The notes under the pieces are model-generated. The model was not told where the DNA came from. It ran no database searches and worked only from the letters and a program-made list of their open reading frames with translations. The translations under genes were made by a program, and so were the position numbers. This document shows, in pieces, positions 9,317-64,000 of a stretch of 64,000 bases of DNA (the stretch's first letter is position 1; each line of letters begins with the position of its first letter). Origin of the DNA: Rhodothermales bacterium. Lineage in GTDB: Bacteria > Bacteroidota > Rhodothermia > Rhodothermales > DASSAV01. Location: positions 4,170-68,169 of the forward strand of contig JAWLHQ010000008.1 in NCBI GenBank assembly GCA_041690215.1, written 5' to 3'.

Positions 9317-9317
9317 C

Positions 9318-44113: not shown

Positions 44114-44174
44114 GATCCTAAGATTTAACCTGCCCGAATACGCTAGCACAACGTCACCTGTACCGGTGTTGACC

Positions 44175-45107
44175 ATGACTACAATACTCCAAGAGAACCC
44201 TGTGAAGCCCGACCTGAGCGCCCACTTGAAGTGGCTGGAGAGGGAGGCGATCTACGTCATGCGCGAGGTTGCCGCCCAGTTCGAAAAACCCGTTTTGCTG
44301 TTTTCGGGTGGAAAAGACTCTATCTGCCTCGTGCGCCTCGCGCAGAAGGCCTTCTGGCCAGGCAAGATTCCGTTCCCGCTCCTGCATATCGATACCGGCC
44401 ACAACTTCCCGGAGACACTGGAATTCCGCGATCAACTGGTAGAACGGCTGGGCGCGAGGCTCATCGTTCGAACGGTGCAGGAATCCATTGATAAGGGTCG
44501 CGTAGTAGAGGAGACCGGGCCAGAGGCCAGCCGCAACGCACTCCAGATCGTCACGCTCCTCGACGCAATCAAGGAGCTTGGCTGCGATGCTGCCATCGGC
44601 GGAGCGAGGCGTGATGAGGAAAAGGCGCGGGCGAAGGAGCGCTTCTTCTCGCACCGGGACCGGTTCGGCCAGTGGGATCCTAAGAACCAGCGGCCTGAAC
44701 TTTGGAACCTCTACAACGGCCGAAAGAATGTCGGCGAGCACTTCCGCATCTTCCCTCTGAGCAACTGGACGGAAATGGACGTCTGGCAGTACATCCATCA
44801 GGAGCGTATTGATATTCCCAGCATCTATTTCTCGCACGAGCGTGAAGTGTTCAGACGCAACGGCGTCCTACTCGCCAAATCGGATTACGTAACGCTTCTT
44901 GATGGCGAATACTATGAAAAGCGTATCGTTCGCTTCCGTACTGTTGGTGATATGACGTGCACGGGCGCTGTGGAATCGACAGCCTCTACGCTTGAGGACA
45001 TCATTGCCGAAGTGGCGGCCGCGCGCGTGACAGAGCGAGGCGGCCGCGCGGACGACAAGCGCTCAGAAGCCGCCATGGAAGATCGCAAGCGACGTGGCTA
45101 TTTCTGA
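44175..45107 (+). CDS. cysD: Sulfate adenylyltransferase subunit 2
   Basis: LEREAIYVMREV, LLFSGGKDS, GGARRDEEKARAKER, VRFRTVGDMTCT; ATG 44175 preferred. Confidence 0.96.
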   Translation: MTTILQENPVKPDLSAHLKWLEREAIYVMREVAAQFEKPVLLFSGGKDSICLVRLAQKAFWPGKIPFPLLHIDTGHNFPETLEFRDQLVERLGARLIVRTVQESIDKGRVVEETGPEASRNALQIVTLLDAIKELGCDAAIGGARRDEEKARAKERFFSHRDRFGQWDPKNQRPELWNLYNGRKNVGEHFRIFPLSNWTEMDVWQYIHQERIDIPSIYFSHEREVFRRNGVLLAKSDYVTLLDGEYYEKRIVRFRTVGDMTCTGAVESTASTLEDIIAEVAAARVTERGGRADDKRSEAAMEDRKRRGYF

Positions 45108-45228
45108 TCGCCTCTCTGTCGATGATCACGCATTCCGTCATTCCGCCCCCAGATGACGGTTGCCCAGCACCAGAGGGGTACCTCTCTGGATGGTCCCTAT
45201 ACTGCCAAGTTTCCTCTTTACTTCCATT

Positions 45229-47127
45229 ATGGACTTACTTCGATTTTCAACAGCCGGAAGCGTGGATGATGGCAAGAGCACGCTAATCGGCCGGCTCCTC
45301 TACGACGCGAAGTCGATCTTTGAGGACCAGCTCGATGCCATTCAGCGCTCCAGCGAACTCCACGGCAACGGCCATATCAACCTTGCTCTCCTGACGGATG
45401 GTCTTCGAGCCGAACGGGAACAGGGGATCACGATCGATGTCGCCTACCGTTACTTCGCCACCCCAAAGCGTAAGTTCATCATCGCCGACACGCCCGGCCA
45501 CGAGCAATACACGCGAAACATGGTGACCGGCGCCTCTACGGCAGAGCTCGCCATCGTTCTCGTCGACGCGCGAAAAGGCGTACTGACACAGTCGCGACGG
45601 CACGGCTTCATCGCCTCCCTCCTACAGATTCCCCATATGGTCGTAGCCGTCAATAAGATGGACCTCGTCGACTACTCGGAGGAGGTGTACCAGGCAATCG
45701 TAGATGAATACGAGGCGTTCGCGCAAAAACTCGAGATCAAGAACATCACCTTCATACCGATTTCCGCCCTCGAAGGAGACAACGTCGTCGAGAAAAGCAC
45801 CAGAATGCCCTGGTATAACGGCCCGACACTTCTTCATTTCCTCGAGACCGTGAAGGTCGGCGCCGAGCGAAACGTGGTCGACTTCCGCTTCCCGGTGCAG
45901 TACGTCGTCCGGCCAAATCAGGACTTCCGTGGCTTTGCTGGGCAGGTTGCCTCCGGCAGCATCACGCCGGGTGAGGAGGTACTGGTGCTCCCATCCGGAA
46001 TGACGACGCGGGTTAAGTCCATCGTCACCTTCGAGAAGGAGGAACAGGAAGCTCAAACGGAGGAGAATGTCATCATCACGCTTGAAGATGAGATTGAACT
46101 GAGCCGGGGAGGAATGATCGTTCGAAGCCGAAACCGGCCCACGATAACGACGACTATCGATGTCGATCTGTGCTGGATGAGCGAAGAGCCTATGCATCCG
46201 GATAAGCTCTACGTACTCCAGCATACGACGCGGCAGGTTTCCGCGTATGTATCCAAGATCATTTACCGGCTCGACGTCAACACCCTCCACCGTGAACCAT
46301 CAGAACGGTTCGAACTCAACGACATCGGGCGTGTCGAAGTCAAAGCCACGCAACCCATCTTCGTCGACCCCTATAAGATCAACCGCCGCACGGGAGCCTT
46401 CATCCTCATCGACCCTGACACCAACACCACCGTTGCGGCCGGAATGATCCGCGGCGTAGCTCAGGACGTCGAACCGGTAGGCGGTACGCAGGTGGAGAGC
46501 CGTACGAAGTCTCCCGACGTCGTATGGGAAGGGTTCAACCTCGCTCGTGAGGAGCGTGAGCGTCGCAACGGACACAACGCCGCGATTCTGTGGTTCACTG
46601 GCCTTTCGGGCTCAGGCAAGACCACGATTGCTCGTGCCCTGGAAAAACGCCTGTTTGATCGGAACTGCCAGACCATGCTCCTGGATGGGGACCACCTCCG
46701 CCATGGGCTATGCAGTGACCTGGGCTTCTCGCCCTCCGACCGGGCAGAAAACATCCGGCGTGTCGGCGAGGTTTCCCGCCTTTTCTTTGAACACGGCAAC
46801 ATCACGCTCTGCACCTTTATCTCTCCCTACCGCAGCGACCGTGATTTCGTCCGTTCGCTCATGCCTGAAGGCAGGTTCTTCGAGATTTTCGTCGATTGCG
46901 ACCTCGAGGTTTGCAAGGAGCGCGATCCGAAAGGGCTCTACCAGAAGGTGAAGGCAGGGCAGATCGAGAACTTCACGGGTATCTCTGCCCCTTACGAACC
47001 TCCGACCAATCCTGACCTCATCTTGCCGTCTGACAAGCAAACAGTGGCCGAAAGCGTCGAGATGCTCATAAAGCTCCTTGAGGAACGCGGCATCTTGCCT
47101 GCTTCCGGTGCGGATGGAACTCGATAG
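45229..47127 (+). CDS. cysNC: Bifunctional sulfate adenylyltransferase subunit 1 / APS kinase (CysN/CysC)
   Basis: TAGSVDDGKSTLIGRLL, REQGITIDVAYRYF, DTPGHEQYTRNM; C-terminal WFTGLSGSGKTT and LDGDHLR APS kinase domain. Confidence 0.96.
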   Translation: MDLLRFSTAGSVDDGKSTLIGRLLYDAKSIFEDQLDAIQRSSELHGNGHINLALLTDGLRAEREQGITIDVAYRYFATPKRKFIIADTPGHEQYTRNMVTGASTAELAIVLVDARKGVLTQSRRHGFIASLLQIPHMVVAVNKMDLVDYSEEVYQAIVDEYEAFAQKLEIKNITFIPISALEGDNVVEKSTRMPWYNGPTLLHFLETVKVGAERNVVDFRFPVQYVVRPNQDFRGFAGQVASGSITPGEEVLVLPSGMTTRVKSIVTFEKEEQEAQTEENVIITLEDEIELSRGGMIVRSRNRPTITTTIDVDLCWMSEEPMHPDKLYVLQHTTRQVSAYVSKIIYRLDVNTLHREPSERFELNDIGRVEVKATQPIFVDPYKINRRTGAFILIDPDTNTTVAAGMIRGVAQDVEPVGGTQVESRTKSPDVVWEGFNLAREERERRNGHNAAILWFTGLSGSGKTTIARALEKRLFDRNCQTMLLDGDHLRHGLCSDLGFSPSDRAENIRRVGEVSRLFFEHGNITLCTFISPYRSDRDFVRSLMPEGRFFEIFVDCDLEVCKERDPKGLYQKVKAGQIENFTGISAPYEPPTNPDLILPSDKQTVAESVEMLIKLLEERGILPASGADGTR

Positions 47128-49258: not shown

Positions 49259-49636
49259 ATGAATGAGACTCAGCAGAACCCGGAAACGCAGCAGGAGTCG
49301 TCCGTGGCCGGCAAATCTACTGTAACCCGGCGAGCCATTCTGAAAGCAGGGTGGGTAGCACCCGTCGTTCTGGCCGTTCCGCTCATGGGTACAGGAAAAG
49401 CGGGACATATTCCTCCTCATGGAAGCAGCTATACCCCTGGCAGCAAGGACTACGGAAGCAAAGGTTGGGGTAGCAATGGCTGGGGTAGCAAAGATTACGG
49501 AAATGGCAGTAAGGATTACGGGACAGGTAGCAAAGACTACGGAAGAGGCAGCAAGGATTACGGCAGGGGCGGCAAGAATTACGGGAACTGGGGCAAGGGC
49601 AGCAAGTGGTGGACTAGCTGGATAAAGTGGGATTGA
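49259..49636 (+). CDS. Putative RiPP precursor / secreted repeat peptide with twin-arginine leader and GSKDYG repeats
   Basis: GAGG RBS; leader TRRAILKAGWVAPVVLAVPL; core with five GSKDYG and one GGKNYG; followed by RRE and kinase genes. Confidence 0.75.
   Translation: MNETQQNPETQQESSVAGKSTVTRRAILKAGWVAPVVLAVPLMGTGKAGHIPPHGSSYTPGSKDYGSKGWGSNGWGSKDYGNGSKDYGTGSKDYGRGSKDYGRGGKNYGNWGKGSKWWTSWIKWD
49439..49588 (+). repeat. Coding 21-bp tandem repeat (GSKDYGx)
   Basis: Five adjacent 21-nt units at 49484-49588 plus an 18-nt copy at 49439-49456; variation is mostly synonymous. Confidence 0.9.
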
Positions 49637-49678
49637 TTAGGCCTTTAAAACCTGCATTGAGTTCATAATCACAACGTA

Positions 49679-49699
49679 AAGCTGAGTCTTTTTCAGCTT
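49679..49699 (+). terminator. Small hairpin between precursor and RRE gene
   Basis: AAGCTGA-GTCTTTT-TCAGCTT; weak U tract, so may only stabilise mRNA. Confidence 0.3.
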
Positions 49700-49701
49700 G
49701 T

Positions 49702-50010
49702 ATGTTAATGGAGTTTCTGAAGGCGAGACCCTCCCGAGCAGCTGGCGTAGTTAGCATGGACGTGCTTGAGGAGAAGGTCCTTTTCCATCCGGCGAGGCAA
49801 GAGGCCATTTCACTGAATGTCTCTTCTGCGGCAATATGGGATTTGTGTGACGGAACGCGTACCGTGGCTGAGATCGGACACGAACTGTCGGAATGGGCCG
49901 GAGCGCCGGAATCGGATGTACTCGCGGATGTAGAGCGAATCGTGAAGCAATTCTCAGAACTCTCGCTCTTGCATATCGATACCGCGAACCAGATTGGAGA
50001 GGACGCGTGA
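49702..50010 (+). CDS. PqqD family RiPP recognition element (RRE)
   Basis: EKVLFHPARQEAISLNVSSAAIWDLCDGTRTVAEIGHEL...DVERIVKQF...LL PqqD signature. Confidence 0.9.
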   Translation: MLMEFLKARPSRAAGVVSMDVLEEKVLFHPARQEAISLNVSSAAIWDLCDGTRTVAEIGHELSEWAGAPESDVLADVERIVKQFSELSLLHIDTANQIGEDA

Positions 50011-50867
50011 GATCAGTATCGAAGGTCGCGCGCGGTCGTGTTTGTCTGCGCTTCCTGGACTACGATGTAACAGTAGTCTCGTCCATCGAAAGTGTTCTTC
50101 AGCGCGTAGCATTCGGTTTTCGTCGGATGCTACGCGCTGATATACCAGACTCGTCTTTTGAGCTCGAGATAAGAGAAGAACACGGTCGGTATGAATTGCT
50201 GAGAAACGGAGAGCTACTTGCATCCTACTCTGATCTCTTCGAGGCCAAAACCGTCCTACGCCACGAGATCAACCGCGCATTCATTTACGCATACCCGGAA
50301 TTCTTGTGGATGCACGCCGGAGCAGTTGCCGGCAAGGACCGCGCAGCGCTCTTCGTCGGAATCTCTGGCCGGGGCAAGAGTACACTCATCACGACCCTAT
50401 GCCAGCAGGGCTTTCGCTATCTCTCCGACGACATTATTCCGCTTGATCCCGCGACAGGCAAGGCGATCCCCTACCCTATGACACCGATCGTCCGGGAGAA
50501 TATCGGGCAGGAGTTGCCTCCAGAACGTGTCGAGGAGATACCCAGGACTTTGGTTGAGTTGCCGGAGAGCACCTATTGCCGAGAACCGGTCAGTGTCGGG
50601 TCAGTGATCCTTCCCGCCTACTCGACAAAATGCCAGGCACGAATACTTCCGTTCTCACCCGGCACAACTACGCTGGACCTCGTCAAGCAATGCATCAATG
50701 CACGCGTGCATGGAGCCTCAGCCGTTACATTCATGGCCGAGTTAACCGCTTCAGTGCCCGTACTGCCCATCGAATACTCGGATGCCCAAAGCGCTGCTAA
50801 TCTGGTAAGCCGTGTGCTCAACGAATCGAGTCCTGCTACATACTCGAGCATCGGACCGGCTGCGTAA
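50007..50867 (+). CDS. HPr-kinase-related P-loop kinase
   Basis: GTG start overlapping the RRE stop; WMHAGAV...LFVGISGRGKSTL...FRYLSDD motif. Confidence 0.85.
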   Translation: MRSVSKVARGRVCLRFLDYDVTVVSSIESVLQRVAFGFRRMLRADIPDSSFELEIREEHGRYELLRNGELLASYSDLFEAKTVLRHEINRAFIYAYPEFLWMHAGAVAGKDRAALFVGISGRGKSTLITTLCQQGFRYLSDDIIPLDPATGKAIPYPMTPIVRENIGQELPPERVEEIPRTLVELPESTYCREPVSVGSVILPAYSTKCQARILPFSPGTTTLDLVKQCINARVHGASAVTFMAELTASVPVLPIEYSDAQSAANLVSRVLNESSPATYSSIGPAA

Positions 50868-52578: not shown

Positions 52579-54432
52579 TCAGAATACTTCCTCGTGCATC
52601 TGCTGCCTCCAAGACGTTGCATAACGACCGTTCTGCCGCAAAAGCTCTTCGTGGGTACCCGACTCAACCACCCTCCCTTCGTCCATGACGTGAATGATGT
52701 CGGCGCGCATAGCGGTTGTGAGGCGGTGCGTAACGATGATTGCCGTCCGCCCGTGCACCAGGCTGTGGAACCGCTCCAGCCATTGGTGCTCGGCCCAGGA
52801 ATCCATTGCGCTCGTCGGCTCATCGAGAATCACAATGGGAGCCTGTCTGAAGAAAGCTCGTGCTAGTGCGACGCGCTGCCACTCTCCACCGCTGAGCTCC
52901 GTTCCGTCCCAGAACCACTTACCCAACTGAGCGTCGTACCCGTACTTCAGTCGCTCGATCACACCGTGGGCGCCAGCCTTCTTCGCTGCCCTCCTGACCA
53001 GTTCTCTTGAAGATGGCGACTGCAGGTTTCCTATCTCTATGTTACGAGCAGCCGTCTCGTGATAGTGGACCGGATCTTGAAACAGGACTGTAATCATGCG
53101 TCGCAACTCATCGACAGGAAAGCGGCGCATGTCCATATCGTCCAGCTCGACTCGTCCTTCCTCTGGATCATAGAATCGGCACAACAGCTTGATCAGCGTG
53201 CTTTTTCCGGCACCATTGGATCCAACGATAGCAACCGTCTGACCGGCAGGAATCGTCAGGTTGAACCGTTGAAGGGCGGCCCGATCCGCGCCCGGATAAC
53301 GGAATGTCACATCCCTGAATCGTATACCCTTCTTGAGCACAGCAGGGACAGGCACAGGCTGAGGTGGATCTTCGATTTTCGAGGGCAGCTCAAGAAACTC
53401 GAAGAGATTACCAAGAAACAGGCTATTGCTGTAGATACGCCCGAGATTGTTCATGAGCGTCCGCATCAAACCCTGCCCCTGGTTGAAAGCCTGGTAAAAG
53501 AGCGCCACGTCACCCAGCGTAGCAGTTCCTTGCATGATTCTGCCGACCATCCACCCCAGAATACTGATCGTCACGGCCAGCGCGAAGATGCTCGCACCCA
53601 GGCTAACGAAGCTCTGATCCCTCACGAGCTTCAAATGCTCGCCCCGGAGTCGTTTGCGAAGCGCCTGATATGCTTCGCTGTACAGCGGTCCAAGCTGGAA
53701 CAGCCGCATTTCCGCCGCCACCGAACTGGCAGAAATGATCCAATCAAAGTAGTCGGCTCTACGCTGGTCGAGCGTCGTCTGCTCCCACCACGTATGGTAG
53801 CAATTATGAAAGTAAAGGACCACGAACACGGCCGGGCCGAGGCTCAGCATCAGAACAAGCGGAACCCAGACCCCATACCGGATCAGCACCCCTGCAATAG
53901 CGAGCAACGTGACCATGTTCTGAACGACCCCGCCGACATTCTCGACAAGTTCCAAAGGACGGGTATCAGCGCTCTCACGGGCCCGGTGCAGACGGTCGTA
54001 ATTTTCCGAGGCCTCGAAGAACGCCAGATCTACCATGTAAGACTTCTTGTGGACGAGGGCACTGACGTGGTCCCGCACCAGCGCAGCCTGCGCCGTACGG
54101 ACCCACGTACTCGCATTCTGCAGCAACTCCTTCAGGAGCAATACGCCTACCATAAGTAGCGCCGGAACCAGGATGATGCGGAGCGTCTCTGGGCTCATGC
54201 CAACACCGATGATCGACGTCAGACTATCCACCAGCATCTTTGTCAGATACACCGTTGCCGCGGGAAGCAAGCCCTCTAAGACGAGCAGACTAGCCCATAG
54301 AAGCGTCAGGGCTCCCGACGCAGCAAACACCAAGCGAAGCGCTCCTGCCAGATGGCTCAAGCGTTGCCAGACAGAGCCTCCATTGAGACGGTCACGAACC
54401 AGTGTAATCACGACTGACACTCCGCAAAACAC
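52579..54432 (-). CDS. ABC transporter permease/ATP-binding protein (peptide exporter type)
   Basis: TM domain plus GSNGAGKST, LSGGEWQRVALAR, LDEPTSAMD. Confidence 0.93.
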   Translation of the reverse strand: MFCGVSVVITLVRDRLNGGSVWQRLSHLAGALRLVFAASGALTLLWASLLVLEGLLPAATVYLTKMLVDSLTSIIGVGMSPETLRIILVPALLMVGVLLLKELLQNASTWVRTAQAALVRDHVSALVHKKSYMVDLAFFEASENYDRLHRARESADTRPLELVENVGGVVQNMVTLLAIAGVLIRYGVWVPLVLMLSLGPAVFVVLYFHNCYHTWWEQTTLDQRRADYFDWIISASSVAAEMRLFQLGPLYSEAYQALRKRLRGEHLKLVRDQSFVSLGASIFALAVTISILGWMVGRIMQGTATLGDVALFYQAFNQGQGLMRTLMNNLGRIYSNSLFLGNLFEFLELPSKIEDPPQPVPVPAVLKKGIRFRDVTFRYPGADRAALQRFNLTIPAGQTVAIVGSNGAGKSTLIKLLCRFYDPEEGRVELDDMDMRRFPVDELRRMITVLFQDPVHYHETAARNIEIGNLQSPSSRELVRRAAKKAGAHGVIERLKYGYDAQLGKWFWDGTELSGGEWQRVALARAFFRQAPIVILDEPTSAMDSWAEHQWLERFHSLVHGRTAIIVTHRLTTAMRADIIHVMDEGRVVESGTHEELLRQNGRYATSWRQQMHEEVF

Positions 54433-54462: not shown

Positions 54463-55464
54463 TTACAGGGCCTCCACATCCTTGATGATTTCTGCAGCCA
54501 CGTCAGGAAGGCGGTCCAGTCCATTCGAATAATGAACTCGGCGCACCGAGACTTGTCGCACGAGTTTGGCGAAGAAAGCCAACCGGGTGGACTGCAAACC
54601 GAAAGCCTCCACGAAATACGGAACAAAGGAATGTCGTATCAATTCCTTCATTGCTTCGAGAGGCGACAGGACCTCGATACAAACAAAATCCTCCAACCGG
54701 TCTCTCCGTTCAGGAATGTAGATGCAGGCTAGTGGCTGCGGCGAGGAGCAGAAAGCACCGAAACTGCTCTCCGCGACAGGAACCCAGAGCTTTTCCAGAT
54801 ACGGAAGAACACGGCTCAGGGAATCGACAGGGCCGAGGAAGTGAGCAGCCTGTCCGGGCCACATCCGTAGCCTGGGATAGCCTGGCATGGCCATCACCTC
54901 CCCCCGCGACATGGTAAGCGGTAAGACATCGTCTGTAAGCAAAGGATGCCCTTTGCGCATTAGCGACGTTGCGAGTGAAGTCTTACCGCCCATGTTTGAA
55001 GCAAGGAATCCAATTGCACGACCGGAAATGCTCACCGCGGCAGCATGCAGCGTCGGAGTGCCACGTCGTTCCAGCCAGAAGGACAGCACTGCTCCCAGAA
55101 GGTATTGCTCTACACCTTCCCTACACGCTGCATCGAAAATCTGACACGCGATTCGATCCTGCCACACGTGAAAGTCTGCAATTCCCGTGAGCCGAATGAG
55201 ATCATAATTCGGCCCCCGATATAAATACGCCAGACTCTGCCCTGAATAATTCAGATCGCGGCTGGCGAAGACAAGAGTGAGTTCTTTTGCCAGGTCTCGA
55301 GGATGTGCATCCACAAATGCCGTGACAACCACATCCGGGGCACCCGCGTCGATAGGCTCGAGACATGTGAACTCAAACTCGCTGGCGATGACTAAACCGT
55401 ACAGGGAATACACAACTCTTGCGCTCTTCGGAACAGGGAAGGTATCTGCCTGGCTATGCACCAT
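54463..55464 (-). CDS. HPr-kinase-like lasso peptide kinase (PadeK-like)
   Basis: LHAAAVSISGRAIGFLASNMGGKTSLA...LLTDD...PGYPRLRMW; inside the lasso cluster. Confidence 0.8.
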   Translation of the reverse strand: MVHSQADTFPVPKSARVVYSLYGLVIASEFEFTCLEPIDAGAPDVVVTAFVDAHPRDLAKELTLVFASRDLNYSGQSLAYLYRGPNYDLIRLTGIADFHVWQDRIACQIFDAACREGVEQYLLGAVLSFWLERRGTPTLHAAAVSISGRAIGFLASNMGGKTSLATSLMRKGHPLLTDDVLPLTMSRGEVMAMPGYPRLRMWPGQAAHFLGPVDSLSRVLPYLEKLWVPVAESSFGAFCSSPQPLACIYIPERRDRLEDFVCIEVLSPLEAMKELIRHSFVPYFVEAFGLQSTRLAFFAKLVRQVSVRRVHYSNGLDRLPDVAAEIIKDVEAL

Positions 55465-56641
55465 ATCCTTTTACGAGGAGTCTCTGAGCGAGAAGCTCGT
55501 TTACGAATGCCCGGACATCGTCCTTCAACTGCGATGCATCCACGTCGTATGCCTTGTAGAGGGATGACTCCGCACCGGCAATCGAGCCACTTTCAGCAAC
55601 GGCTTCCCAGATATCGGCAGCAGTCCCCTCCAGCGTGTAACAGGTCTCGGTCTGCAGGTCTCCAATAACGACCTGCCCTTTGAGCCGCCCAAATATTACG
55701 TGCGGAGCCACCTGTAGCGGACCTTTCCCCTCCCGCTGCACCTGCACGACTGGTCGGTTATCCTTGTTCTCAATACGGTTCTTCAGGCACAGCGCTGGAG
55801 CAGCCAGGCGCCAGCCAAGCTCCACTTTCTCCGTAACAGGGTTGATCACCGCGATGTCAGGCTCGCTCCAGGGAAAGCAGAGATGATCCGGCTGACCACT
55901 CCAGTAAAAATCACGCCCCGATACTCCTGCCCACCGCGCCTTCCAGGCAGAATAGTCTTCCTGATGTAGTGCTGGCGCGTGATCGCAAAGATCCCGGGCA
56001 CTCACACAGGCCAGCACGCGCGGCTCGCTGGACTCGATTGCCTTGCGTAGATCCGGGTGTGAGTACAGATGTGCGAAGATGACCTCAGCACCCTCATTCT
56101 GCCGTAGATAATGGTAGAAACGTGTTCCGGAAAGTGCACAATCGTCGATCACCACGCGAGGAACACTTTCTATAGAAGTCATTGACAACTGATCCGGCCT
56201 CAGGCCAAGCGCATAAGCCACCATTCCCAGCACAATAAGTCCTCCACGGGGGATAGCGCAGAACTGGTAGTCATGCAAAGTTGCTTCGCCAAATCGCTCC
56301 ACCAGCCGCTCGGCGAGAAGCTCCGCATCCCGTTCCGCCTGCTCATAACCGACATAACGCAGGTGGGGCAACACGTACTTCAGTTCAGTAGCAAGCGCCT
56401 CGATACGTCCCTCAGCCTCGTTGTCAAAAAAGCCAATAATGCCCAGTTCTGGGGGCAATCCTGGTCGGACGACGAGCACGGAGTCCGGCAATGCGTTCCA
56501 GGCCGGGCTCGAAGCCAGCCCCTCAGCCAGACTCATTAGTACGCGTTCCCTATCCTCCGGCGTGCCTTCAGGATACGGGATCTCCTCCGGCAATGGTAAC
56601 ACATATACCCGAGGTCGAAGCCGCATCCTCATGTCATTCAT
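55454..56641 (-). CDS. Phosphoribosyltransferase-like domain fused to C-terminal PqqD/RRE
   Basis: AIPRGGL and VVIDDCALSGTRF (type I PRTase PRPP loop); C-terminal VVIGDLQTETCYTLEGTAADIWEAV...DDVRAFVNELLAQRLL RRE. ATG 56641 preferred because a terminator hairpin lies upstream (ORF open from GTG 56755). Confidence 0.8.
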   Translation of the reverse strand: MNDMRMRLRPRVYVLPLPEEIPYPEGTPEDRERVLMSLAEGLASSPAWNALPDSVLVVRPGLPPELGIIGFFDNEAEGRIEALATELKYVLPHLRYVGYEQAERDAELLAERLVERFGEATLHDYQFCAIPRGGLIVLGMVAYALGLRPDQLSMTSIESVPRVVIDDCALSGTRFYHYLRQNEGAEVIFAHLYSHPDLRKAIESSEPRVLACVSARDLCDHAPALHQEDYSAWKARWAGVSGRDFYWSGQPDHLCFPWSEPDIAVINPVTEKVELGWRLAAPALCLKNRIENKDNRPVVQVQREGKGPLQVAPHVIFGRLKGQVVIGDLQTETCYTLEGTAADIWEAVAESGSIAGAESSLYKAYDVDASQLKDDVRAFVNELLAQRLLVKGYGA

Positions 56642-56646
56642 CTCGT

Positions 56647-56698
56647 GAAACAAAACCGAGGGATGGCCAGGACCATACAACTGCCTTGGCCACCCCTC
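56647..56698 (-). terminator. Intrinsic terminator/attenuator downstream of the lasso precursor
   Basis: 12-bp arms GAGGGATGGCCA (56658-69) / TGGCCACCCCTC (56687-98), one mismatch that is G-U on the minus transcript, followed on the minus strand by GGTTTTGTTTC. Confidence 0.6.
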
Positions 56699-56759
56699 AG
56701 TACGAAGGCCTCCATGCCCTACAGATTGCGTGGTACAGCCTACCTCGTCATCCACCTGG

Positions 56760-56906
56760 TCAGGACTTCTTCTTGTCGTGGCCAGGCGGGTTGACGCTGC
56801 CCAACTTAAGGTCCGTGCCAGGTCTCGTGAGGCCTACTCCAGTGATGTCACTGACGCTGCCCCACTGCTGCAGCATGGGTCGTGCGTAGAGCTTTTTCTC
56901 CGTCAT
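56760..56906 (-). CDS. Lasso peptide precursor (48 aa)
   Basis: Hand translation MTEKKLYARPMLQQWGSVSDITG-VGLTRPGTDLKLGSVNPPGHDKKKS*; exact YxxPxLxxxGxxxxxT leader; Asp at core position 9; AGGAG RBS; next to the cyclase. Confidence 0.9.
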   Translation of the reverse strand: MTEKKLYARPMLQQWGSVSDITGVGLTRPGTDLKLGSVNPPGHDKKKS

Positions 56907-56940
56907 GACCGATCTCCTAGGTGGGTGGTGAGAGATGAAA

Positions 56941-57062: not shown

Positions 57063-58973
57063 CTACGATCCCCAGTACTGCCGGAGCCACATTTCCAGTG
57101 TAAGCGCCCACCAAAAGAACGGATGTTCCGTTTCCCCCCGGCATATTGCCTCGAAATGATCGCGTAGCACCTCCTCTCGCACAAAGCCTCTCCGGCTGGC
57201 CTCCATGTTCGTCGTCAAGTCGAGTACGGTATCTTTCTCCTTCTTCGTAATCGCCCATTCGTAGAGTGGATATGGAATGATTTTCGTCACAGCCTGCCGC
57301 ACCTCCTCAGGCATGATGCCTCGCATCGCCTGCCGAGCCAGACGCTTATCCTCGCCCGTCCGATTCAACACACGCTGCGGAACAGCTACGGCAAAGGAGA
57401 CGATACGACGGTCACTCCATGGATCGGCAAATCCGATCCCGTAGCGCGCCTGGGTCCGCTCCGACCATACTACTCCGCGCATGTGCATAGAGACGAAAAC
57501 CGCTTGATATCGCTGCTGACGGGCGAATGTCCGCAGGTCTACCGGGTGCTCGTTCCTCCGCATGGATTCGATAAGTCCGCTACGCTTAACGAACTCGGGA
57601 TGGACCCACGTAGGAATGGGCGACGGGAAAGACCGTAGTCTTCGGTGAACCTGCCGAATCCAGCCTGCCCTCGTCCTACCCCGGATCCAGGCGTGATAGG
57701 TTTTCGCCAGCTGTCTGCGAACCTCACGCCGAAACGGCTCGCCTCGCCACTGGCTCACAAGTCGCAATTCGTCCCGGAGCGTTGCCCACTCTCCGGCCAC
57801 TGCAAGTCCTACATAATCATAGTTCGCCATGCCCATCGTAAGGTCTCCTCGATCTCCAGAGAGCATGAGCCCGATCCCCCGGGATCGGGCATCAGCGAGC
57901 GACTCCTCAACGAGCGCCTGATACGTCCCGATGTAAGGCTCGTCCGAATCGGGGCCGTATGCGGGGTAGTCTTTCAGCGGCCATGCTGCGTCGACCGAGA
58001 TGTCGTGCTGCGGAAACCGGTAGTGCTGCACGATGCCGTTACTGATGTGCCGCTCGTCACATTCGGGGAAGGATTCGAATGCAAAGGAATAGGCATGTAT
58101 CTCCGGAAAACGATTTTCCGGCTGACTACCCTTCCACCACCCTGCCATGGATGCGAGGCTGCCCGAATCCATCCCTCCACTCAGGAAGATGCCTACCGGC
58201 CTGGTACTTCGCAGCCGACACCGAACGGCTTCCTTGAACAGCTCCAGGAAGTGCTCTACATATTCCTCCTCATCTTGGTACCGAATCTCATGCTCCAGAT
58301 CGATGTCCCAGTACCGCCAAGTCCTCACCCCGTCTGCGTCGACTCGCAGAGCGTGACCGGGAGGTAACTGGTTGACACCCTCATAGAATGTCCAGGTAAG
58401 TTCATCGAAATGCCCTGCGAGATAGGCGGCAACGTACGGTTCGAAAATCCTACGCGGCACCTTTGGCGCTGCCAGGATCTGCTTCACCTCGGTAGCGAAG
58501 AGAAAGCGGTCGGACTCTTGCCGGTAGTAGATTGCCCGCATAGCCATCGGGTCCCGCGCGGCAAAAAGACAGTGTTCCTGCACATCCCAGAGCGCAAAGG
58601 CAAAGTCGCCGATGATATGCGCCGCACACTCAGTCCCCCAGTGCTGATACGCCGCCAGAATCAGTTCGGCATCAGACGGTGCATCGTCCTTGAGCAGCCC
58701 CTTCGCTGAAAGTGCGTGGATCAGCTCATCACGGTTATCCACGCGCGCATCGGCAGTGAGCACCAGCCCCCCATCTCGGCTCACGAGAGGCTGACACTCT
58801 CCTATGGATTCCGGCACAAGGTTGTACGCGAGGTGCCCCATGCCGACTTGGCCAGATGTCCAGACCTGCATGCCATCATGCCCGCGGTGCGCAGCTGCTT
58901 CTGCCATCCGGCGAATCACGGCCGGATCTACAGGCCGCCCGTCACGATGGAATACACCGCAGATACCGCTCAT
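57063..58973 (-). CDS. Lasso peptide isopeptide-bond-forming cyclase (asparagine synthetase-like)
   Basis: AsnB-like fold with FLSGGMDSGS ATP-PPase loop; starts MSGICG, lacking the catalytic Cys1 of true AsnB; adjacent to a lasso precursor. Confidence 0.88.
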   Translation of the reverse strand: MSGICGVFHRDGRPVDPAVIRRMAEAAAHRGHDGMQVWTSGQVGMGHLAYNLVPESIGECQPLVSRDGGLVLTADARVDNRDELIHALSAKGLLKDDAPSDAELILAAYQHWGTECAAHIIGDFAFALWDVQEHCLFAARDPMAMRAIYYRQESDRFLFATEVKQILAAPKVPRRIFEPYVAAYLAGHFDELTWTFYEGVNQLPPGHALRVDADGVRTWRYWDIDLEHEIRYQDEEEYVEHFLELFKEAVRCRLRSTRPVGIFLSGGMDSGSLASMAGWWKGSQPENRFPEIHAYSFAFESFPECDERHISNGIVQHYRFPQHDISVDAAWPLKDYPAYGPDSDEPYIGTYQALVEESLADARSRGIGLMLSGDRGDLTMGMANYDYVGLAVAGEWATLRDELRLVSQWRGEPFRREVRRQLAKTYHAWIRGRTRAGWIRQVHRRLRSFPSPIPTWVHPEFVKRSGLIESMRRNEHPVDLRTFARQQRYQAVFVSMHMRGVVWSERTQARYGIGFADPWSDRRIVSFAVAVPQRVLNRTGEDKRLARQAMRGIMPEEVRQAVTKIIPYPLYEWAITKKEKDTVLDLTTNMEASRRGFVREEVLRDHFEAICRGETEHPFFWWALTLEMWLRQYWGS

Positions 58974-59545
58974 GACGACATCACTTCTCGATGCGTCCAG
59001 GGCTCGAAGCTTTTTGCCTCATAGCGTCCACATAGCAAAGCGAGGCGTTTGACATCGAGGAGCAGCTTCGCGTGATCATGGTGAAAGGCAGTGAGTCCGT
59101 GCTCCTCAGTCTGCTTGACAGCAAAACGTCTCACCTGGTCCCACAACTGAACCGAATCGTCTCGCCCTCCTAGATATCGGTAGATGGACTCAATCAGAGC
59201 CTGCGTCTGCCTGACAGTTTCCATGCATTCATCGAATTCGAGCGCTCCCTCCCGCAACTGTTTTAATAGATCACAGGCATACGCACCACAAACCCGCGGT
59301 CTATCAGGAAAGATGGAGCATTTATATTGCTTTTCATCGAAACGTGGACAGGGCAGTGAAAACGCGTCGTACTCGTAGCCTTTCTGCACGACAGGGAGCT
59401 GCATGCTCAACGCGAATTCGACTTCGTCAGGATCAAGTCCCGCATGGCTGTGAAGTACGCCATGACAGCAGAGTCCGCAGGAAAGGCATAATTCCATTGC
59501 TTTCGTAGCCAGCTCTTCTGCAGGGCTTGTGATTGTGTTCTCCAT
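58970..59545 (-). CDS. YkgJ family cysteine-cluster protein (CxxCxxCC)
   Basis: CLSCGLCCHG...CPRF...CSIFPDRPRVCGAYAC; stop overlaps the cyclase start; ATG 59545 preferred (ORF open from 59590). Confidence 0.85.
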   Translation of the reverse strand: MENTITSPAEELATKAMELCLSCGLCCHGVLHSHAGLDPDEVEFALSMQLPVVQKGYEYDAFSLPCPRFDEKQYKCSIFPDRPRVCGAYACDLLKQLREGALEFDECMETVRQTQALIESIYRYLGGRDDSVQLWDQVRRFAVKQTEEHGLTAFHHDHAKLLLDVKRLALLCGRYEAKSFEPWTHREVMSS

Positions 59546-59710
59546 GGTGAACCTGTACGTAAAAGGTTGCGAGTACTCCCATGTCGGCATCTCCGGAAGA
59601 TATTGGAGAACCGGAGAATGAGAAGGTGCTCATGCCCGGCAGTTAGATGCGTCCTGAGCCTGGATGGACTTACATCGCTGATCTATGATGCCAACCGCCA
59701 AAACTACATA

Positions 59711-60889
59711 CTAGTCCTCCGGCACCCACGCGATGCTACGTTGTGCTCTTCTGGCAAGCGCGTACATAAAGTAACGAGTTTTCGTCAACACAGAATCCTG
59801 CACCGCCAGATGAAATCGGAAGCGCTCGTCAGGAGTCATGCGCTCTTCATGAGTCCTGACGAGCCACGTCATGAGTTGCCTTTCAAGCTCCTCGACCTTC
59901 GCATCGCGCATGGACCATCTCACAATGCCTGGAGGCAGGGGCGCATCCAGCAGCTTATGCGCCATATAGATACCAAGCCTGAGGATGCGCGTAGCACGCG
60001 TCCGCCGCGCCCGGTCAATCACCACATCCCAGTCTAGCCCCGGACTCGAACGAATGAGTTCCGCAACGTCGCAGTAGTGCTTCAGTACCTCCCACCGGTT
60101 CTTTACGCCATGAAAACACAGAATAAGAAGCATGTCTTCGGGAGAAAACGTGCGCAGGTTCATCCCGCCGACAGCCACAGTTACGGCACGGTCCATGAGG
60201 TCCTCAAACCTGAGATTATACCGGTATCCCGGCGGCATGATGCCTACGTGCAGGTCAAGAGCTACTAAACCGCGGGCGAAGGTGGACTGTCGCGAAAGCG
60301 CGCGATACAAGAATCTACTTACTCCCTCCAATTCTCCCGCACGTCCGACGAGTTGAAATCCCTCCCTCAACAATACTGCCTCGGTCTCCCTGTATTTGTT
60401 CGCAGGAATAAGTACATCAATATCACCACACGAACGAAGACCGAGACTCCTATAAGCCATCTGCGCGAGGACGGGACCCTTGAACGCAATGCCTGGAATT
60501 CCGTGGGAGTCTAAAGCGTTCAGAATCCGTGCTTGCTCTCCGGAGAGGGAAAGGTTCCGAACGGCCACATCTCTGCCTACTTGTCCAAGCTGAGGCGGCA
60601 GATCAACCTGGCTCCCGTTGAAACGGACCAGCGCAAGCGTCTTCGCAACCAGCGGAAGTACCCCATGAAATGAGGCCAGGCGCAATAAGCGCGGCCAATC
60701 CGTAACTTCTCGGACTAGTTCTCGAATGGTTTCAGCTCGGCCCTCACGCAGATCCGTCGTCGCAGAGGCCATGAGCAAATCCATATAGACTGACTGTCCT
60801 TTCATCGGAAAGTCGGTAAGATCTGCGCGAGCAGTTCGGAAGTAACTGATAGTTTCTCCGTGTAGTAGTACAGGGGGAGCGTTATCCAT
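59711..60889 (-). CDS. Nucleotidyltransferase family protein (NTP_transf_5 type)
   Basis: AFKGPVLAQMAY...RSCGDIDVLI, LDLHVGI, LILCFHGVK, RWEVLKHYCDVAELI. Confidence 0.9.
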   Translation of the reverse strand: MDNAPPVLLHGETISYFRTARADLTDFPMKGQSVYMDLLMASATTDLREGRAETIRELVREVTDWPRLLRLASFHGVLPLVAKTLALVRFNGSQVDLPPQLGQVGRDVAVRNLSLSGEQARILNALDSHGIPGIAFKGPVLAQMAYRSLGLRSCGDIDVLIPANKYRETEAVLLREGFQLVGRAGELEGVSRFLYRALSRQSTFARGLVALDLHVGIMPPGYRYNLRFEDLMDRAVTVAVGGMNLRTFSPEDMLLILCFHGVKNRWEVLKHYCDVAELIRSSPGLDWDVVIDRARRTRATRILRLGIYMAHKLLDAPLPPGIVRWSMRDAKVEELERQLMTWLVRTHEERMTPDERFRFHLAVQDSVLTKTRYFMYALARRAQRSIAWVPED

Positions 60890-61322: not shown

Positions 61323-62396
61323 CTATGGCAAGCTAATTTTGGCAACCAGTGGTCTGTGATCAGATGCTGTACTGCGGAGAATTCTCGCGTCCAGGATGCG
61401 CCAGTGTGGACTCACAAGCATATGATCTATCCGGACCAGTGGTACGACACTATGGTACGTTCCTCCCCAGCCGCTCCCAGCAACCTCAAAAACGTCCTGG
61501 TGACCGCGGCGCAGATGCCAGTACACCCACTGGTGTGGTGTGCTGTTGAAGTCGCCACATATGATATAGGGCAATTCTTCCTGTGATAGGATTTCTCGAA
61601 TCTGAGATGCCTCATCCGCGCGTATCAGAAAGTCTTTCCCATAGCTCAACATGTTGGCGAATAGCGTGCTCAGCCGTCCAATTTCGCCAGTAAGTGCGCT
61701 TGAATGACCATCCGGATTAAAAGAGCGTAGGTGCACGTTGTATATGGCCACCGCTTGTCCCTCCCAGCGCAGAACGGCTCGGGTAAGCACCTGACGTCGC
61801 TCGCCGCTAGAATCGATCGACCAGGATCTCAGTCCGGGCTCCACCCAGTCAAGCTTACTGAAAACCGGTAGTCGTGTCCCATCCTCCGTAGGATCTGACA
61901 TCCACCTGGCCGGCTCCCATCCTGCCTCTGCTACGAGCCGAGCCTGAGGTGACATGATCATGATCGGCGGATCCGCCGAATATCCCGTATACGTCTCCTG
62001 AAGACCAATAATGTCCGGGTGTGCTTCTTGGAAAGCCTTCAACAATGAAGCCTCACCGCGGCGTCCTTCCCTGAGCTTGACATTATTCGTGAGTACCCGC
62101 AGTACAGGCCTATCGCCGGCACTGGAGCGGAGTAATCGTTCTGTTGGAAAAAATCGGACCACTACCAGAACCACAGCAAGTAGATGTGCTAGCAGCAGCG
62201 CAGGATGCCGCCTGAAAGCAAGAACTACCGCACTAGCCACCACCACGAACATGCTCAAGACCGGCAACCCGACGGCTAAAACCTGCAGCCACCATCCATG
62301 CTTGGGGTGAACGTAGCGAGCAGCATATGCCGCGGTAAAAAGTAGGAGTAAACCGATGTCCACGGCGAGAAGCAAACCGCTCACGTAGCGACGCAT
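61323..62396 (-). CDS. Endonuclease/exonuclease/phosphatase family protein with N-terminal TM helices
   Basis: VLTNNV, DIIGLQE, YNVHL, ICGDFNSTP, RIDHMLVS, SDHRPL. Confidence 0.9.
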   Translation of the reverse strand: MRRYVSGLLLAVDIGLLLLFTAAYAARYVHPKHGWWLQVLAVGLPVLSMFVVVASAVVLAFRRHPALLLAHLLAVVLVVVRFFPTERLLRSSAGDRPVLRVLTNNVKLREGRRGEASLLKAFQEAHPDIIGLQETYTGYSADPPIMIMSPQARLVAEAGWEPARWMSDPTEDGTRLPVFSKLDWVEPGLRSWSIDSSGERRQVLTRAVLRWEGQAVAIYNVHLRSFNPDGHSSALTGEIGRLSTLFANMLSYGKDFLIRADEASQIREILSQEELPYIICGDFNSTPHQWVYWHLRRGHQDVFEVAGSGWGGTYHSVVPLVRIDHMLVSPHWRILDARILRSTASDHRPLVAKISLP

Positions 62397-62405
62397 ACTA
62401 TATGC

Positions 62406-64000
62406 CTACACGAGCGCAAGTGGATCATCGACATCGGCAGCGTTGGCCTCACGCATCTGAGCATGCCAGGATACTGCATACCGGCCGTTCAGCGCCAGTA
62501 GCTCCTGGTGTGTCCCCGATTCAACGATACGACCACGCTCCATAACGTGAATCACGTCCGCCTTCATAGCCGTCGTGAAGCGATGCGTAATGACGATCGC
62601 CGTACGCCCCCTCACGAGATCCTTGAAGCCCTGCATCCATTCTACCTCCGTCCACGAGTCCATGGCGCTCGTAGGCTCGTCGAGCACCACGATGGGCGCA
62701 CGTCGCAAGTACGCACGCGCGAGTGCTATACGTTGCCACTGCCCCCCACTCAGGTCCATACCCTCCGGAAAGAGGCGGCCAAGAATGGTATCGTATTGCT
62801 GTGGCAGGCTTTTGATAAACCCGTCTGCATTGGCTCTGCTAGCGGCTTCTACGACCGCATCCTCGCCAGCCGACCTGCTACCCAGCGCGATATTTTCATA
62901 GGCTGTCGCCTGGTAGCGAACAGGTGTCTGCAGCATGTACGAGACCTTGCTCAGCAAGTCTCGCTTAGAGAAGCTGCGTACATCGATTCCATCAATGAGC
63001 ACGCGTCCCTGGTCCGGATCGTAGAATCGGCACAGGAGCTTCGTCAGCGTGCTCTTTCCGGCACCGTTGGACCCTACGATGGCCACGATTTTGCCTGCCG
63101 GGATCTCGAGATTGAAGTTCTCGAGAGCAGGCCGCTTACCCTCCGGGTACGTAAAGGTCACATTCTCGAATCGGATGCCGCGCGAGAGTCTGGATGGCAC
63201 AGGCAAGGGCTGCTCAGGCTCATCCAACGCCGGTACGATTGCCAGAAAGGCATAAAGATGCTCCAGGAAGAGCGTGTTTGCGTAGATCTGCCCCATGCTA
63301 CCGAGTAAGGACCGCATCAAGGATTGCCCCTGGTTGATAGCCTGGTAAAACGAGGCGATGTCGCCCAAGGTCGCCAATCCTTGAAACGCGCGCCACGCCA
63401 TCCAACCGAGTACCGCCGCGGTAGCCACGAGCCCGTGAAGCGCAGCGATGATTGAAGCGACGGATTGTTTCTTCGTTAACTCCAGGCTCTCCGTGCGCAG
63501 TCGCCTCCGCGTCTTTCGGTACTCCTGCATGAAGTACTGACCAAGGTCATAGAGCCGCATCTCAGCCGCAAATCGTGGCTCGATGAACAGAACATCGAGG
63601 TAATGGGCCCAGCGACGATCCTTTGTCGTCCGTTTCCACCATGCGTGATAGCGACGATTATGGCGGACGACGACATAAAGCGCCGGCAGGGTGCCTAGAC
63701 CGAGCAGTAGTGGAAGCCAGAGGCTATACGACGCGAGAATGGCTGCCATGGAAAGGAAAGCAATGCCGTTCTGCACGAGCGTCCCGAGGTTTTGCTGAAG
63801 TGCCAGCGTCCGGGTACTTGCCTGGCTACTTGCTTCCTGAAGCTTATCGAAAAACTCGGGGGACTCATAAAAGCCGTAATCGACCTCGATCGACTTCCGG
63901 TGAATGAGCGCCTTCACCTCGTCCTGTACGAGTTCGGCTTGAGCCGCCTGGATCCAGGTCTGCAGGCTCTGCAAGACATACTGCGCCAGGATCAGTAACG
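62406..64000 (-). CDS. ABC transporter permease/ATP-binding protein (5' end outside window)
   Basis: GSNGAGKST, LSGGQWQRIALAR, LDEPTSAMD; frame stays open to the window edge. Confidence 0.92.
   Translation of the reverse strand, partial: LLILAQYVLQSLQTWIQAAQAELVQDEVKALIHRKSIEVDYGFYESPEFFDKLQEASSQASTRTLALQQNLGTLVQNGIAFLSMAAILASYSLWLPLLLGLGTLPALYVVVRHNRRYHAWWKRTTKDRRWAHYLDVLFIEPRFAAEMRLYDLGQYFMQEYRKTRRRLRTESLELTKKQSVASIIAALHGLVATAAVLGWMAWRAFQGLATLGDIASFYQAINQGQSLMRSLLGSMGQIYANTLFLEHLYAFLAIVPALDEPEQPLPVPSRLSRGIRFENVTFTYPEGKRPALENFNLEIPAGKIVAIVGSNGAGKSTLTKLLCRFYDPDQGRVLIDGIDVRSFSKRDLLSKVSYMLQTPVRYQATAYENIALGSRSAGEDAVVEAASRANADGFIKSLPQQYDTILGRLFPEGMDLSGGQWQRIALARAYLRRAPIVVLDEPTSAMDSWTEVEWMQGFKDLVRGRTAIVITHRFTTAMKADVIHVMERGRIVESGTHQELLALNGRYAVSWHAQMREANAADVDDPLALV

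Follow-up and report, generated by a model that had tools for sequence, protein, structure and literature searches.

The locus raises two questions: whether the short reading frame at positions 56760-56906 of the 64-kb stretch of DNA that was analysed (the window, 64,000 nucleotides) encodes a lasso peptide and, if so, between which residues the ring of that peptide would be closed. The frame, the genes around it, its relatives in other genomes and the remainder of its own genome were analysed.

The precursor gene

The frame, here called gene A (56760..56906, minus strand), consists of 48 codons and a TGA stop and translates to MTEKKLYARPMLQQWGSVSDITGVGLTRPGTDLKLGSVNPPGHDKKKS. A Shine-Dalgarno sequence, AGGAGA (56913..56918, minus strand), lies 6 nt 5′ of the ATG and is conserved in L088, a locus that encodes the nearest relative of the peptide; a consensus scan found no sigma-70-like promoter upstream of gene A on the minus strand. 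Residues 1-23 (56838..56906) form the leader, in which Y7, P10, L12, G16 and T22 fit the pattern YxxPxLxxxGxxxxxT exactly, as had been proposed from the sequence alone. Subfamily column statistics, discussed below, and the codon coordinates give a predicted core of residues 24-48, VGLTRPGTDLKLGSVNPPGHDKKKS (56763..56837). Numbered back from this core, the leader residues are Y7 (−17), P10 (−14), L12 (−12), G16 (−8), T22 (−2) and G23 (−1). The codons of Val24 (56835-56837), Thr27 (56826-56828), the predicted ring acceptor Asp32 (56811-56813) and Ser37, core Ser14 (56796-56798), all on the minus strand, are those of most interest for maturation.

A family HMM was trained on 68 precursors, all from other genomes and none from the window. 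When 103,700 six-frame segments of the genome were searched with it, gene A ranked first (E 5.6e-12), and the second and third matches were further precursors, both beside cyclases. Gene A narrowly fails the curated precursor models of NCBI, with 18.5 bits for NF033521 (cut-off 19) and 19.6 bits for NF033528 (cut-off 33). The exact peptide was not found in a collection of 5.8 billion proteins in which its neighbour P0002 is present, and a search of this collection with the 48-residue peptide returned one relative only. Its absence from the protein collection and its score below the NF033521 cut-off account plausibly for the missing annotation, and the case illustrates that a true precursor can sit just below curated HMM cut-offs and escape gene callers. 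The translated frame, the ribosome-binding site, the family HMM, a syntenic homologue of 89% identity and the flanking cyclase and RRE genes all agree with the proposal of an unannotated precursor at this site. Judged on this sequence evidence, gene A is a genuine lasso-peptide precursor.

The gene cluster

Gene A is flanked by the genes for a lasso cyclase and a PqqD/RRE-containing protein. The cyclase (C, 57063..58973, minus strand, 636 aa) is an asparagine-synthetase-like protein matching PF00733, PF13537 and NF033535, the last with 459 bits (E 2.6e-137), below the cut-off of 525.

The gene on the other side (55454..56641, minus strand) encodes a protein of about 395 residues in which a phosphoribosyltransferase (PRTase)-fold domain is followed by a C-terminal PqqD/RRE domain. 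An AlphaFold2 model was obtained for a 433-aa version starting at a GTG codon (pLDDT 85, residues 1-44 disordered), and PF05402 was matched at residues 363-427. Foldseek superposed the C-terminal domain on the leader-bound B1 proteins TbiB1 (5v1v and 5v1u) and TfuB1 (6jx3) with TMt values of 0.82-0.88, the highest being that for 5v1v (0.88). The central domain superposed on type I phosphoribosyltransferases (XGPRT, TMt ~0.6), and the PRPP-loop motif VVxDDxxxxG is invariant in an alignment of the family. The match of the C-terminal domain to leader-bound B1 proteins implies that an RRE function is present, fused to an enzyme-like domain. On the strength of the model, the RRE of the fusion protein supplies the B1 function, with predicted binding of the leader.

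The GTG start at 56755 was rejected. The 44 residues that it would add are disordered in the model, the extended frame overlaps a hairpin, and the L088 protein starts at an aligned Met. The disorder and the aligned Met indicate that the fusion protein probably starts at one of the ATG codons at 56641, 56632 or 56626.

The hairpin (56656-56700), followed by UUUUGUUU (56648-56655), occupies 56648..56700 on the minus strand between gene A and the fusion gene. Its stem of 18 pairs (15 + 3, with single-base bulges) lies inside a 146-nt fold of −53.1 kcal/mol and is kept in L088 through wobble pairs and compensating changes. A simple terminator scan did not call it as a terminator. It is likely to be an attenuator that raises the ratio of precursor to enzyme.

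The fusion gene is followed by that of an HprK-like peptide kinase (K, 54463..55464, minus strand), which has weak matches to HprK-related NCBIfam models and visible Walker-like GGKTS and TDD motifs, and then by that of an ABC exporter (D, 52579..54432, minus strand; PF00005 and MsbA-like matches). Upstream of the cyclase is the gene for a YkgJ/CxxCxxCC accessory protein (58970..59590, minus strand; PF03692), whose stop overlaps the cyclase start and which is translationally coupled to the cyclase. It is preceded by the gene for an NTP_transf_5 nucleotidyltransferase (59711..60889, minus strand; PF14907, E 2.5e-60), a member of the Pfam family of the PsmN/BsfN/LppN-type enzymes. An endonuclease/exonuclease/phosphatase (EEP) family protein (61323..62396, minus strand; PF03372) is of uncertain membership in the cluster.

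Related clusters in other genomes

Four metagenome contigs with an identical gene order encode the nearest relative of the gene A peptide, P0125 (89% identity), and the ribosome-binding site and the hairpin after gene A are conserved in them as well. At the DNA level gene A is 91% identical to its counterpart in L088, compared with 80% across the 2.3-kb locus. The segment VGLTRPGTD has no amino-acid change in P0125, and substitutions are confined to the leader, loop and tail.

Because the peptide search had yielded only one relative, precursors were sought by a six-frame motif search around the loci of the fusion protein. Used as bait, the fusion protein gave more than 220 homologues (33-53% identical) and 80 genomic loci, in Cyanobacteria, Gemmatimonadota, Acidobacteriota, Pseudomonadota (Halomonas and relatives), Spirochaetota, Chloroflexota, Salinibacteraceae and others. 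In most of these loci the cyclase gene, small ORF, fusion gene and kinase gene follow one another in this order, a kinase homologue standing directly after the fusion gene, and a leader-bearing small ORF was recovered in 61. The PF14907 nucleotidyltransferase is present in many of the 80 loci. No counterpart of the YkgJ or EEP genes was found in them by tblastn (E < 1e-5), and these two genes are either cluster-specific additions or merely neighbours.

Gene A belongs to a tight subfamily of 30 precursors with the core [V/T/A]-G-x-T-x-P-G-x-D...G-S, all of which adjoin a PRTase-RRE fusion and an HprK-like kinase. Its peptide combines a short loop, D-LKL-GS, as in the peptides of Gemmatimonadota type, with the GSVNPPGH tail seen in the Halomonas/Trueperaceae type, and terminates in KKKS. 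A literature search found no experimental work on any member of these PRTase-RRE/HprK lasso clusters, and nothing relevant was found for lasso peptides together with phosphoribosyltransferase (with or without PqqD) or with Halomonas. As this subfamily is widespread and uncharacterised, gene A is, by sequence, a new member of an unstudied branch of kinase-associated lasso peptides and not a one-off oddity. Of 40 relatives in the same order, 39 lack the fusion gene, among them the only other genome of the genus. This distribution points to an accessory element that was probably acquired.

The ring

The register of the core was judged from the columns of the subfamily (n = 30), numbered from the conserved Thr as −2. 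Position −1 holds nine different residues (L 7, Q 6, K 5, A 4, R 3, G 2, and N, H and E). Position +1 is confined to V (16), T (11) and A (3). Gly at +2, T/S at +4 and Asp at +9 occur in 30 of 30, and Gly at +7 in 29. The invariant Asp32 is therefore core position 9, or position 8 if the core begins at Gly25, so that an acidic residue stands within positions 7-9 in both registers, as the class II type of lasso precursor requires.

With Val24 as residue 1, the Tyr, Pro, Leu and Thr of the gene A leader fall at −17, −14, −12 and −2, the positions at which these residues are reported to be required for B1 binding and B2 cleavage (PMC10368454). The cleavage site of BsfA, from Bradymonas sediminis, has the same spacing from YxxPxL and was confirmed in vitro, with Ile in place of Thr at −2 (PMC10368454). 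The spectrum of residues at position 23 is that of the −1 residue in 18 relatives of Gly1 type (L 6, Q 5, R 3 and others), whereas the V/T/A position is constrained, as befits a first core residue. Three relatives without Gly at +2 nevertheless keep Asp at +9 from the Thr at −2 (TKGMTHLTD in L041, TLSTQVPGD in L077 and SLSTVTPGD in L080), and in a register one residue later they would start with Lys1 or Leu1, or form a seven-residue ring. Nine-residue rings have been established experimentally for paeninodin (Ala1-Asp9) and pseudomycoidin (Ala1-Glu9), products of homologous kinase-type clusters (PMC6993621). The leader spacing, the variability of the columns and these two precedents together make Val1-Asp9 the best-supported ring of the gene A peptide and, on present sequence evidence, a quite likely one; the earlier proposal of this ring, with paeninodin as its analogue, has thus stood up.

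The chief competitor, not considered in the sequence-only reading, is cleavage between Val24 and Gly25, which would give an eight-residue Gly1-Asp8 ring, GLTRPGTD, with Thr22 at −3 and Thr27 as Thr3. Gly25 is present in 30 of 30 members, always with Asp seven residues later, and the 18 relatives that lie beside the same PRTase-RRE/kinase set have the arrangement T-x-G...D8. BsfA, moreover, has the ring sequence GTSGNEVD with phospho-Ser3, and a Thr two residues after the Gly would align with this known kinase site. Against this, the leader residues would be displaced to −18, −15, −13 and −3, away from the −17/−14/−12/−2 rule. The new −1 residue (V/T/A) would be constrained and the new −2 residue hypervariable, the reverse of what is seen in the Gly1-type relatives, and L041, L077 and L080 lack the Gly and still place Asp at +9 from the Thr. 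Paeninodin, whose core also carries Gly at +2, closes from Ala1. An eight-residue ring from Gly25 is therefore considered unlikely, and Val1-Asp9 is retained as the preferred register.

The sequence-only reading had described Val as a rare first residue. This appears to hold for characterised peptides: no characterised lasso peptide with Val1 was found, nor any open-access paper bringing together Val1, lasso and macrolactam, the candidate papers mentioning Val10 and higher only. It does not hold for the subfamily, in which Val is the commonest residue at the first core position (16 of 30), and by this count the gene A peptide is not unique. Cyanobacterial relatives carry Y, I, V, F, A or Q at this position. 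Together with the V/T/A of the subfamily, this range suggests that the cyclases of the PRTase-RRE clade generally tolerate N-termini other than Gly, as they appear to do from their substrates' sequences. In two loci from Calothrix and Rivularia (L009 and L019), Gln lies two residues after the conserved Thr (T-Q-QGGPPIRVD and T-Q-QGGGNNTD); their rings would begin with Gln1 in the Thr(−2) register or with Gly1 if the leader were cut one residue later.

If the ring were confirmed, it would be, within the literature found, the first lasso macrolactam to be characterised with a ring closed at an N-terminal Val. It would also open to experiment a subfamily that is large, spans phyla, is unstudied and has several oddities: an RRE fused to a phosphoribosyltransferase-fold domain, an internal conserved modification site and a leader peptidase that is often encoded elsewhere.

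The tail and its possible modification

A basic tail had also been singled out from the sequence. The KKKS end is present, but neither the basic tail nor the C-terminal Ser is a feature of the family: the gene A peptide is the sole member of the 30 with a terminal Ser, and the last residues of P0125 are KKKG. An internal G-S/T is instead found in all 30. In the gene A peptide this is Ser37 (core Ser14), within the motif GS(V/I)NPPG common to the members from Halomonas, Trueperaceae and Spirochaetota.

In paeninodin and pseudomycoidin the C-terminal Ser is the phospho-acceptor. Internal sites are also known: BsfK phosphorylates Ser3 of its leader-bearing precursor (PMC10368454), and LppK likewise acts on a Ser3 (PMC13381572). 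From the conservation of the columns, the internal Gly-Ser (Ser37) is a likelier site of decoration than the C-terminal Ser. In pseudomycoidin the phosphate is further decorated with hexoses by a PF14907 enzyme (PMC6993621). By analogy with these internal-Ser kinases and with the hexose transfer, we infer that the kinase acts on Ser37 or Thr27, and extension of the phosphate by the PRTase-fold domain and/or the nucleotidyltransferase would be possible.

A point against the nine-residue lasso is that the tail of the gene A peptide has few bulky residues to hold such a ring, and pseudomycoidin without its decorations is reported not to be threaded (PMC6993621). A bolder reading, which we regard as doubtful, is that members of the subfamily, many of which have tails poor in bulky residues, form nine-residue rings from a β-branched Val1 or Thr1 that are locked by a bulky adduct on the invariant tail Ser, built by the kinase and extended by the PRTase-fold domain or nucleotidyltransferase, threading being dependent on this modification. 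If true, the adduct would amount to phosphoribosylation, a peptide modification not known to have been described for RiPPs.

The leader peptidase and a proposed maturation route

No B2 leader peptidase was found in the 64-kb window. The only B2 of the genome lies 68 kb away (contig C8, 129316-129789, minus strand; 9314-9790 of locus L007) and is the single match to PF13471 (57.5 bits) and NF033537 (58.7 bits, above the cut-off of 33) in the whole genome. It is full length, with Cys (YCMKRS) and His (GHAW) motifs visible, and stands alone, near dnaA, with a T9SS-tailed protein encoded on one side and B12-binding/MeaB/methylmalonyl-CoA mutase genes on the other. Such separation is common. In 23 of 42 long loci no B2 is encoded within 7 kb of the cluster (it is in the other 19), and each of the 24 genomes with this type of cluster that were tested contained a B2. 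The genome has three sets of cyclase, kinase and precursor and one B2, as would fit a shared enzyme, and the single B2 therefore probably serves all three lasso clusters. Replacement of B2 by the PRTase-fold domain was considered and rejected, as every fusion-bearing genome tested also has a B2.

A route to the mature peptide can be proposed. Gene A would be translated from its own strong ribosome-binding site, while the conserved hairpin and the U-run after it would limit read-through into the enzyme genes. The leader would be bound through Y7-x-x-P10-x-L12 by the C-terminal PqqD/RRE domain of the fusion protein and, with the leader still attached, the HprK-like kinase would phosphorylate a conserved hydroxyl, most likely that of Ser37 or else that of Thr27. 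Extension of the phosphate group by the PRTase-fold domain and the PF14907 nucleotidyltransferase may follow. The remote B2 cysteine protease would cut after Gly23, leaving Thr22 at −2, and the cyclase would activate the side chain of Asp32 and join it to the α-amine of Val24, giving the Val1-Asp9 macrolactam with a 16-residue tail for export by the ABC transporter. It is reasonably likely, judging from the sequence data, that gene A encodes a functional precursor from a paeninodin-related, kinase-associated subfamily whose maturation follows this Val1-Asp9 route. Counting against it are the location of B2 outside the cluster, the scores of the cyclase and the precursor below the curated NCBI cut-offs, the absence of Val1 from the characterised lasso peptides found, and the invariant Gly25 seven residues before Asp32.

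The cluster could instead be cryptic, gene A being intact but its peptide left unprocessed or cut by host proteases only. The window lacks a B2, the only one being 68 kb distant and next to dnaA and methylmalonyl-CoA mutase genes; the absence of the cluster from 39 of 40 same-order relatives suggests an accessory acquisition; and the related bsf and psm clusters are silent in their native hosts. This seems improbable, however, because the orphan B2 is a full-length protein that exceeds the curated cut-off and has both catalytic-type motifs (Cys and His), because a detached B2 is common in this subfamily (23 of 42 long loci, with a B2 in 24 of 24 genomes), because three sets served by one B2 fit a shared enzyme, and because no ORF of the cluster is disrupted and L088 conserves the precursor.

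Two other readings fare worse. The sequence-only reading had offered as its alternative to Val1 a cleavage directly after Thr22, making Gly23 residue 1 of a ten-residue ring. Gly is the usual first residue, and the RODEO splitting pattern allows up to ten residues between the Thr and the Asp/Glu, both of which favour this start. The hypervariability of residue 23 (L, Q, K, A, R, G, N, H or E) nevertheless indicates that the Gly found there is incidental, described rings have seven to nine residues only, and the Thr would be at −1. This start is accordingly the least likely of the three registers, a very improbable one, and the real rival of Val1-Asp9 is the Gly25-Asp32 ring. Finally, the reading of gene A as an untranslated chance frame, to which its shortness, its absence from the protein collection and its scores below the curated cut-offs might point, has a negligible probability and is effectively refuted by the sequence evidence of the family HMM (E 5.6e-12), a ribosome-binding site that matches the consensus, the canonical site between cyclase and RRE protein and syntenic homologues in about 60 loci.

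Comparison with known systems

The closest characterised relatives are paeninodin (PadeA, Paenibacillus dendritiformis) and pseudomycoidin (PsmA, Bacillus pseudomycoides); the facts on paeninodin used here were drawn from PMC6993621 and PMC8498205. Their leaders have the same YxxPxL...T-x form as that of gene A, and their nine-residue rings begin with a residue other than Gly followed by Gly2 (Ala1-Gly2...Asp9/Glu9), as is predicted for gene A, although with Val in place of Ala as residue 1. The gene order C-A-K...D with an HprK-like kinase is also shared, and the psm cluster contains a PF14907-type nucleotidyltransferase as well (PMC6993621). The present cluster differs in that a PRTase-fold domain is joined to its RRE, where the B1 proteins of those systems are discrete, its B2 is encoded outside the cluster, and the YkgJ and EEP genes are extra. 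The C-terminal phospho-Ser of the Pade and Psm peptides is conserved in 1 of 30 members here, and the conserved hydroxyls are internal (Thr4 and Ser14 of the core).

The bsf cluster (PMC10368454) is a Gram-negative kinase-associated lasso cluster with K and N genes, like the present one. Its kinase modifies an internal Ser/Thr while the precursor still bears its leader, as is proposed here, and YxxPxL lies at −17 to −12 in both. BsfA differs from gene A in having Ile at −2 and a Gly1-Asp8 ring, and its cluster in having a discrete B1 and an internal B2. No mature Bsf lasso peptide was obtained (PMC10368454).

Among the PRTase-RRE/HprK lasso clusters, to which it belongs and with which it shares the order C-A-fusion-K, the window cluster has an unusually distant B2. 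The NCBIfam names available for these clusters are limited to NF033535 ('lass_lactam_cya') and, for some precursors, NF033528 ('lasso_cyano'). [quoted passage not shown] They have no cyclase and use a signal-peptidase-like protease. The comparison fits a second unit in the window and not gene A.

That unit is on the plus strand (49259-50867) and converges on the lasso operon. It comprises a repeat-rich ORF of 125 residues, a PqqD-like RRE (49702-50010) and a second HprK-like gene (49893-50867). This set of genes resembles those of the LPPs found beside paeninodin-type clusters (PMC13381572); a signal-peptidase-like protease was not seen in it.

Other RiPP loci in the same genome

A second lasso cluster (L092) begins at 62406-64000 of the window and continues to contig C8, 66575-72680. 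It encodes a discrete PqqD protein (94 aa), a cyclase (687 aa; NF033535, 723 bits), an HprK-like kinase and an ABC transporter. Since the 3′ part of this transporter gene is the ORF at window 62406-63974, that ORF belongs to the second cluster and not to that of gene A. The precursor, MKRTYEAPELTSFGTVAAITAALGGDPSPDQSEYPQIPANHGSFDVCDNQTQPDVC, passes NF033528 and is predicted to form an Ala1-Asp9 ring. No B2 was found in this cluster.

A third set of cyclase, HprK-like kinase and ABC transporter lies on contig C18 (13865-19205; 3865-9205 of locus L093), again with no B2 in the cluster. In the Thr(−2) register its precursor, beginning MTHNKLSYTAPSIQAYGTVADLTGTICVDIGLSDTKNLGW, lacks an Asp or Glu at core positions 7-9; counted from its second Thr, the ring would be Cys1-Asp8.

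The fourth match of the family HMM (E 0.001) is a leader-like mini-ORF, MKRPYVKPEVRCYGTVKHITGSFSD followed by a stop codon, on the plus strand of contig C8 (117530-117607). It ends four residues after the predicted cleavage site and the frame continues past the stop. It could be the remnant of a precursor that has degenerated.

A few kb from the RiPP units, the plus strand of the window (42341-47127) encodes a sulfate/citrate-type transporter, a CysD-like protein of the PAPS-reductase family and a CysN/CysC fusion, that is, a sulfate adenylyltransferase joined to an APS kinase.
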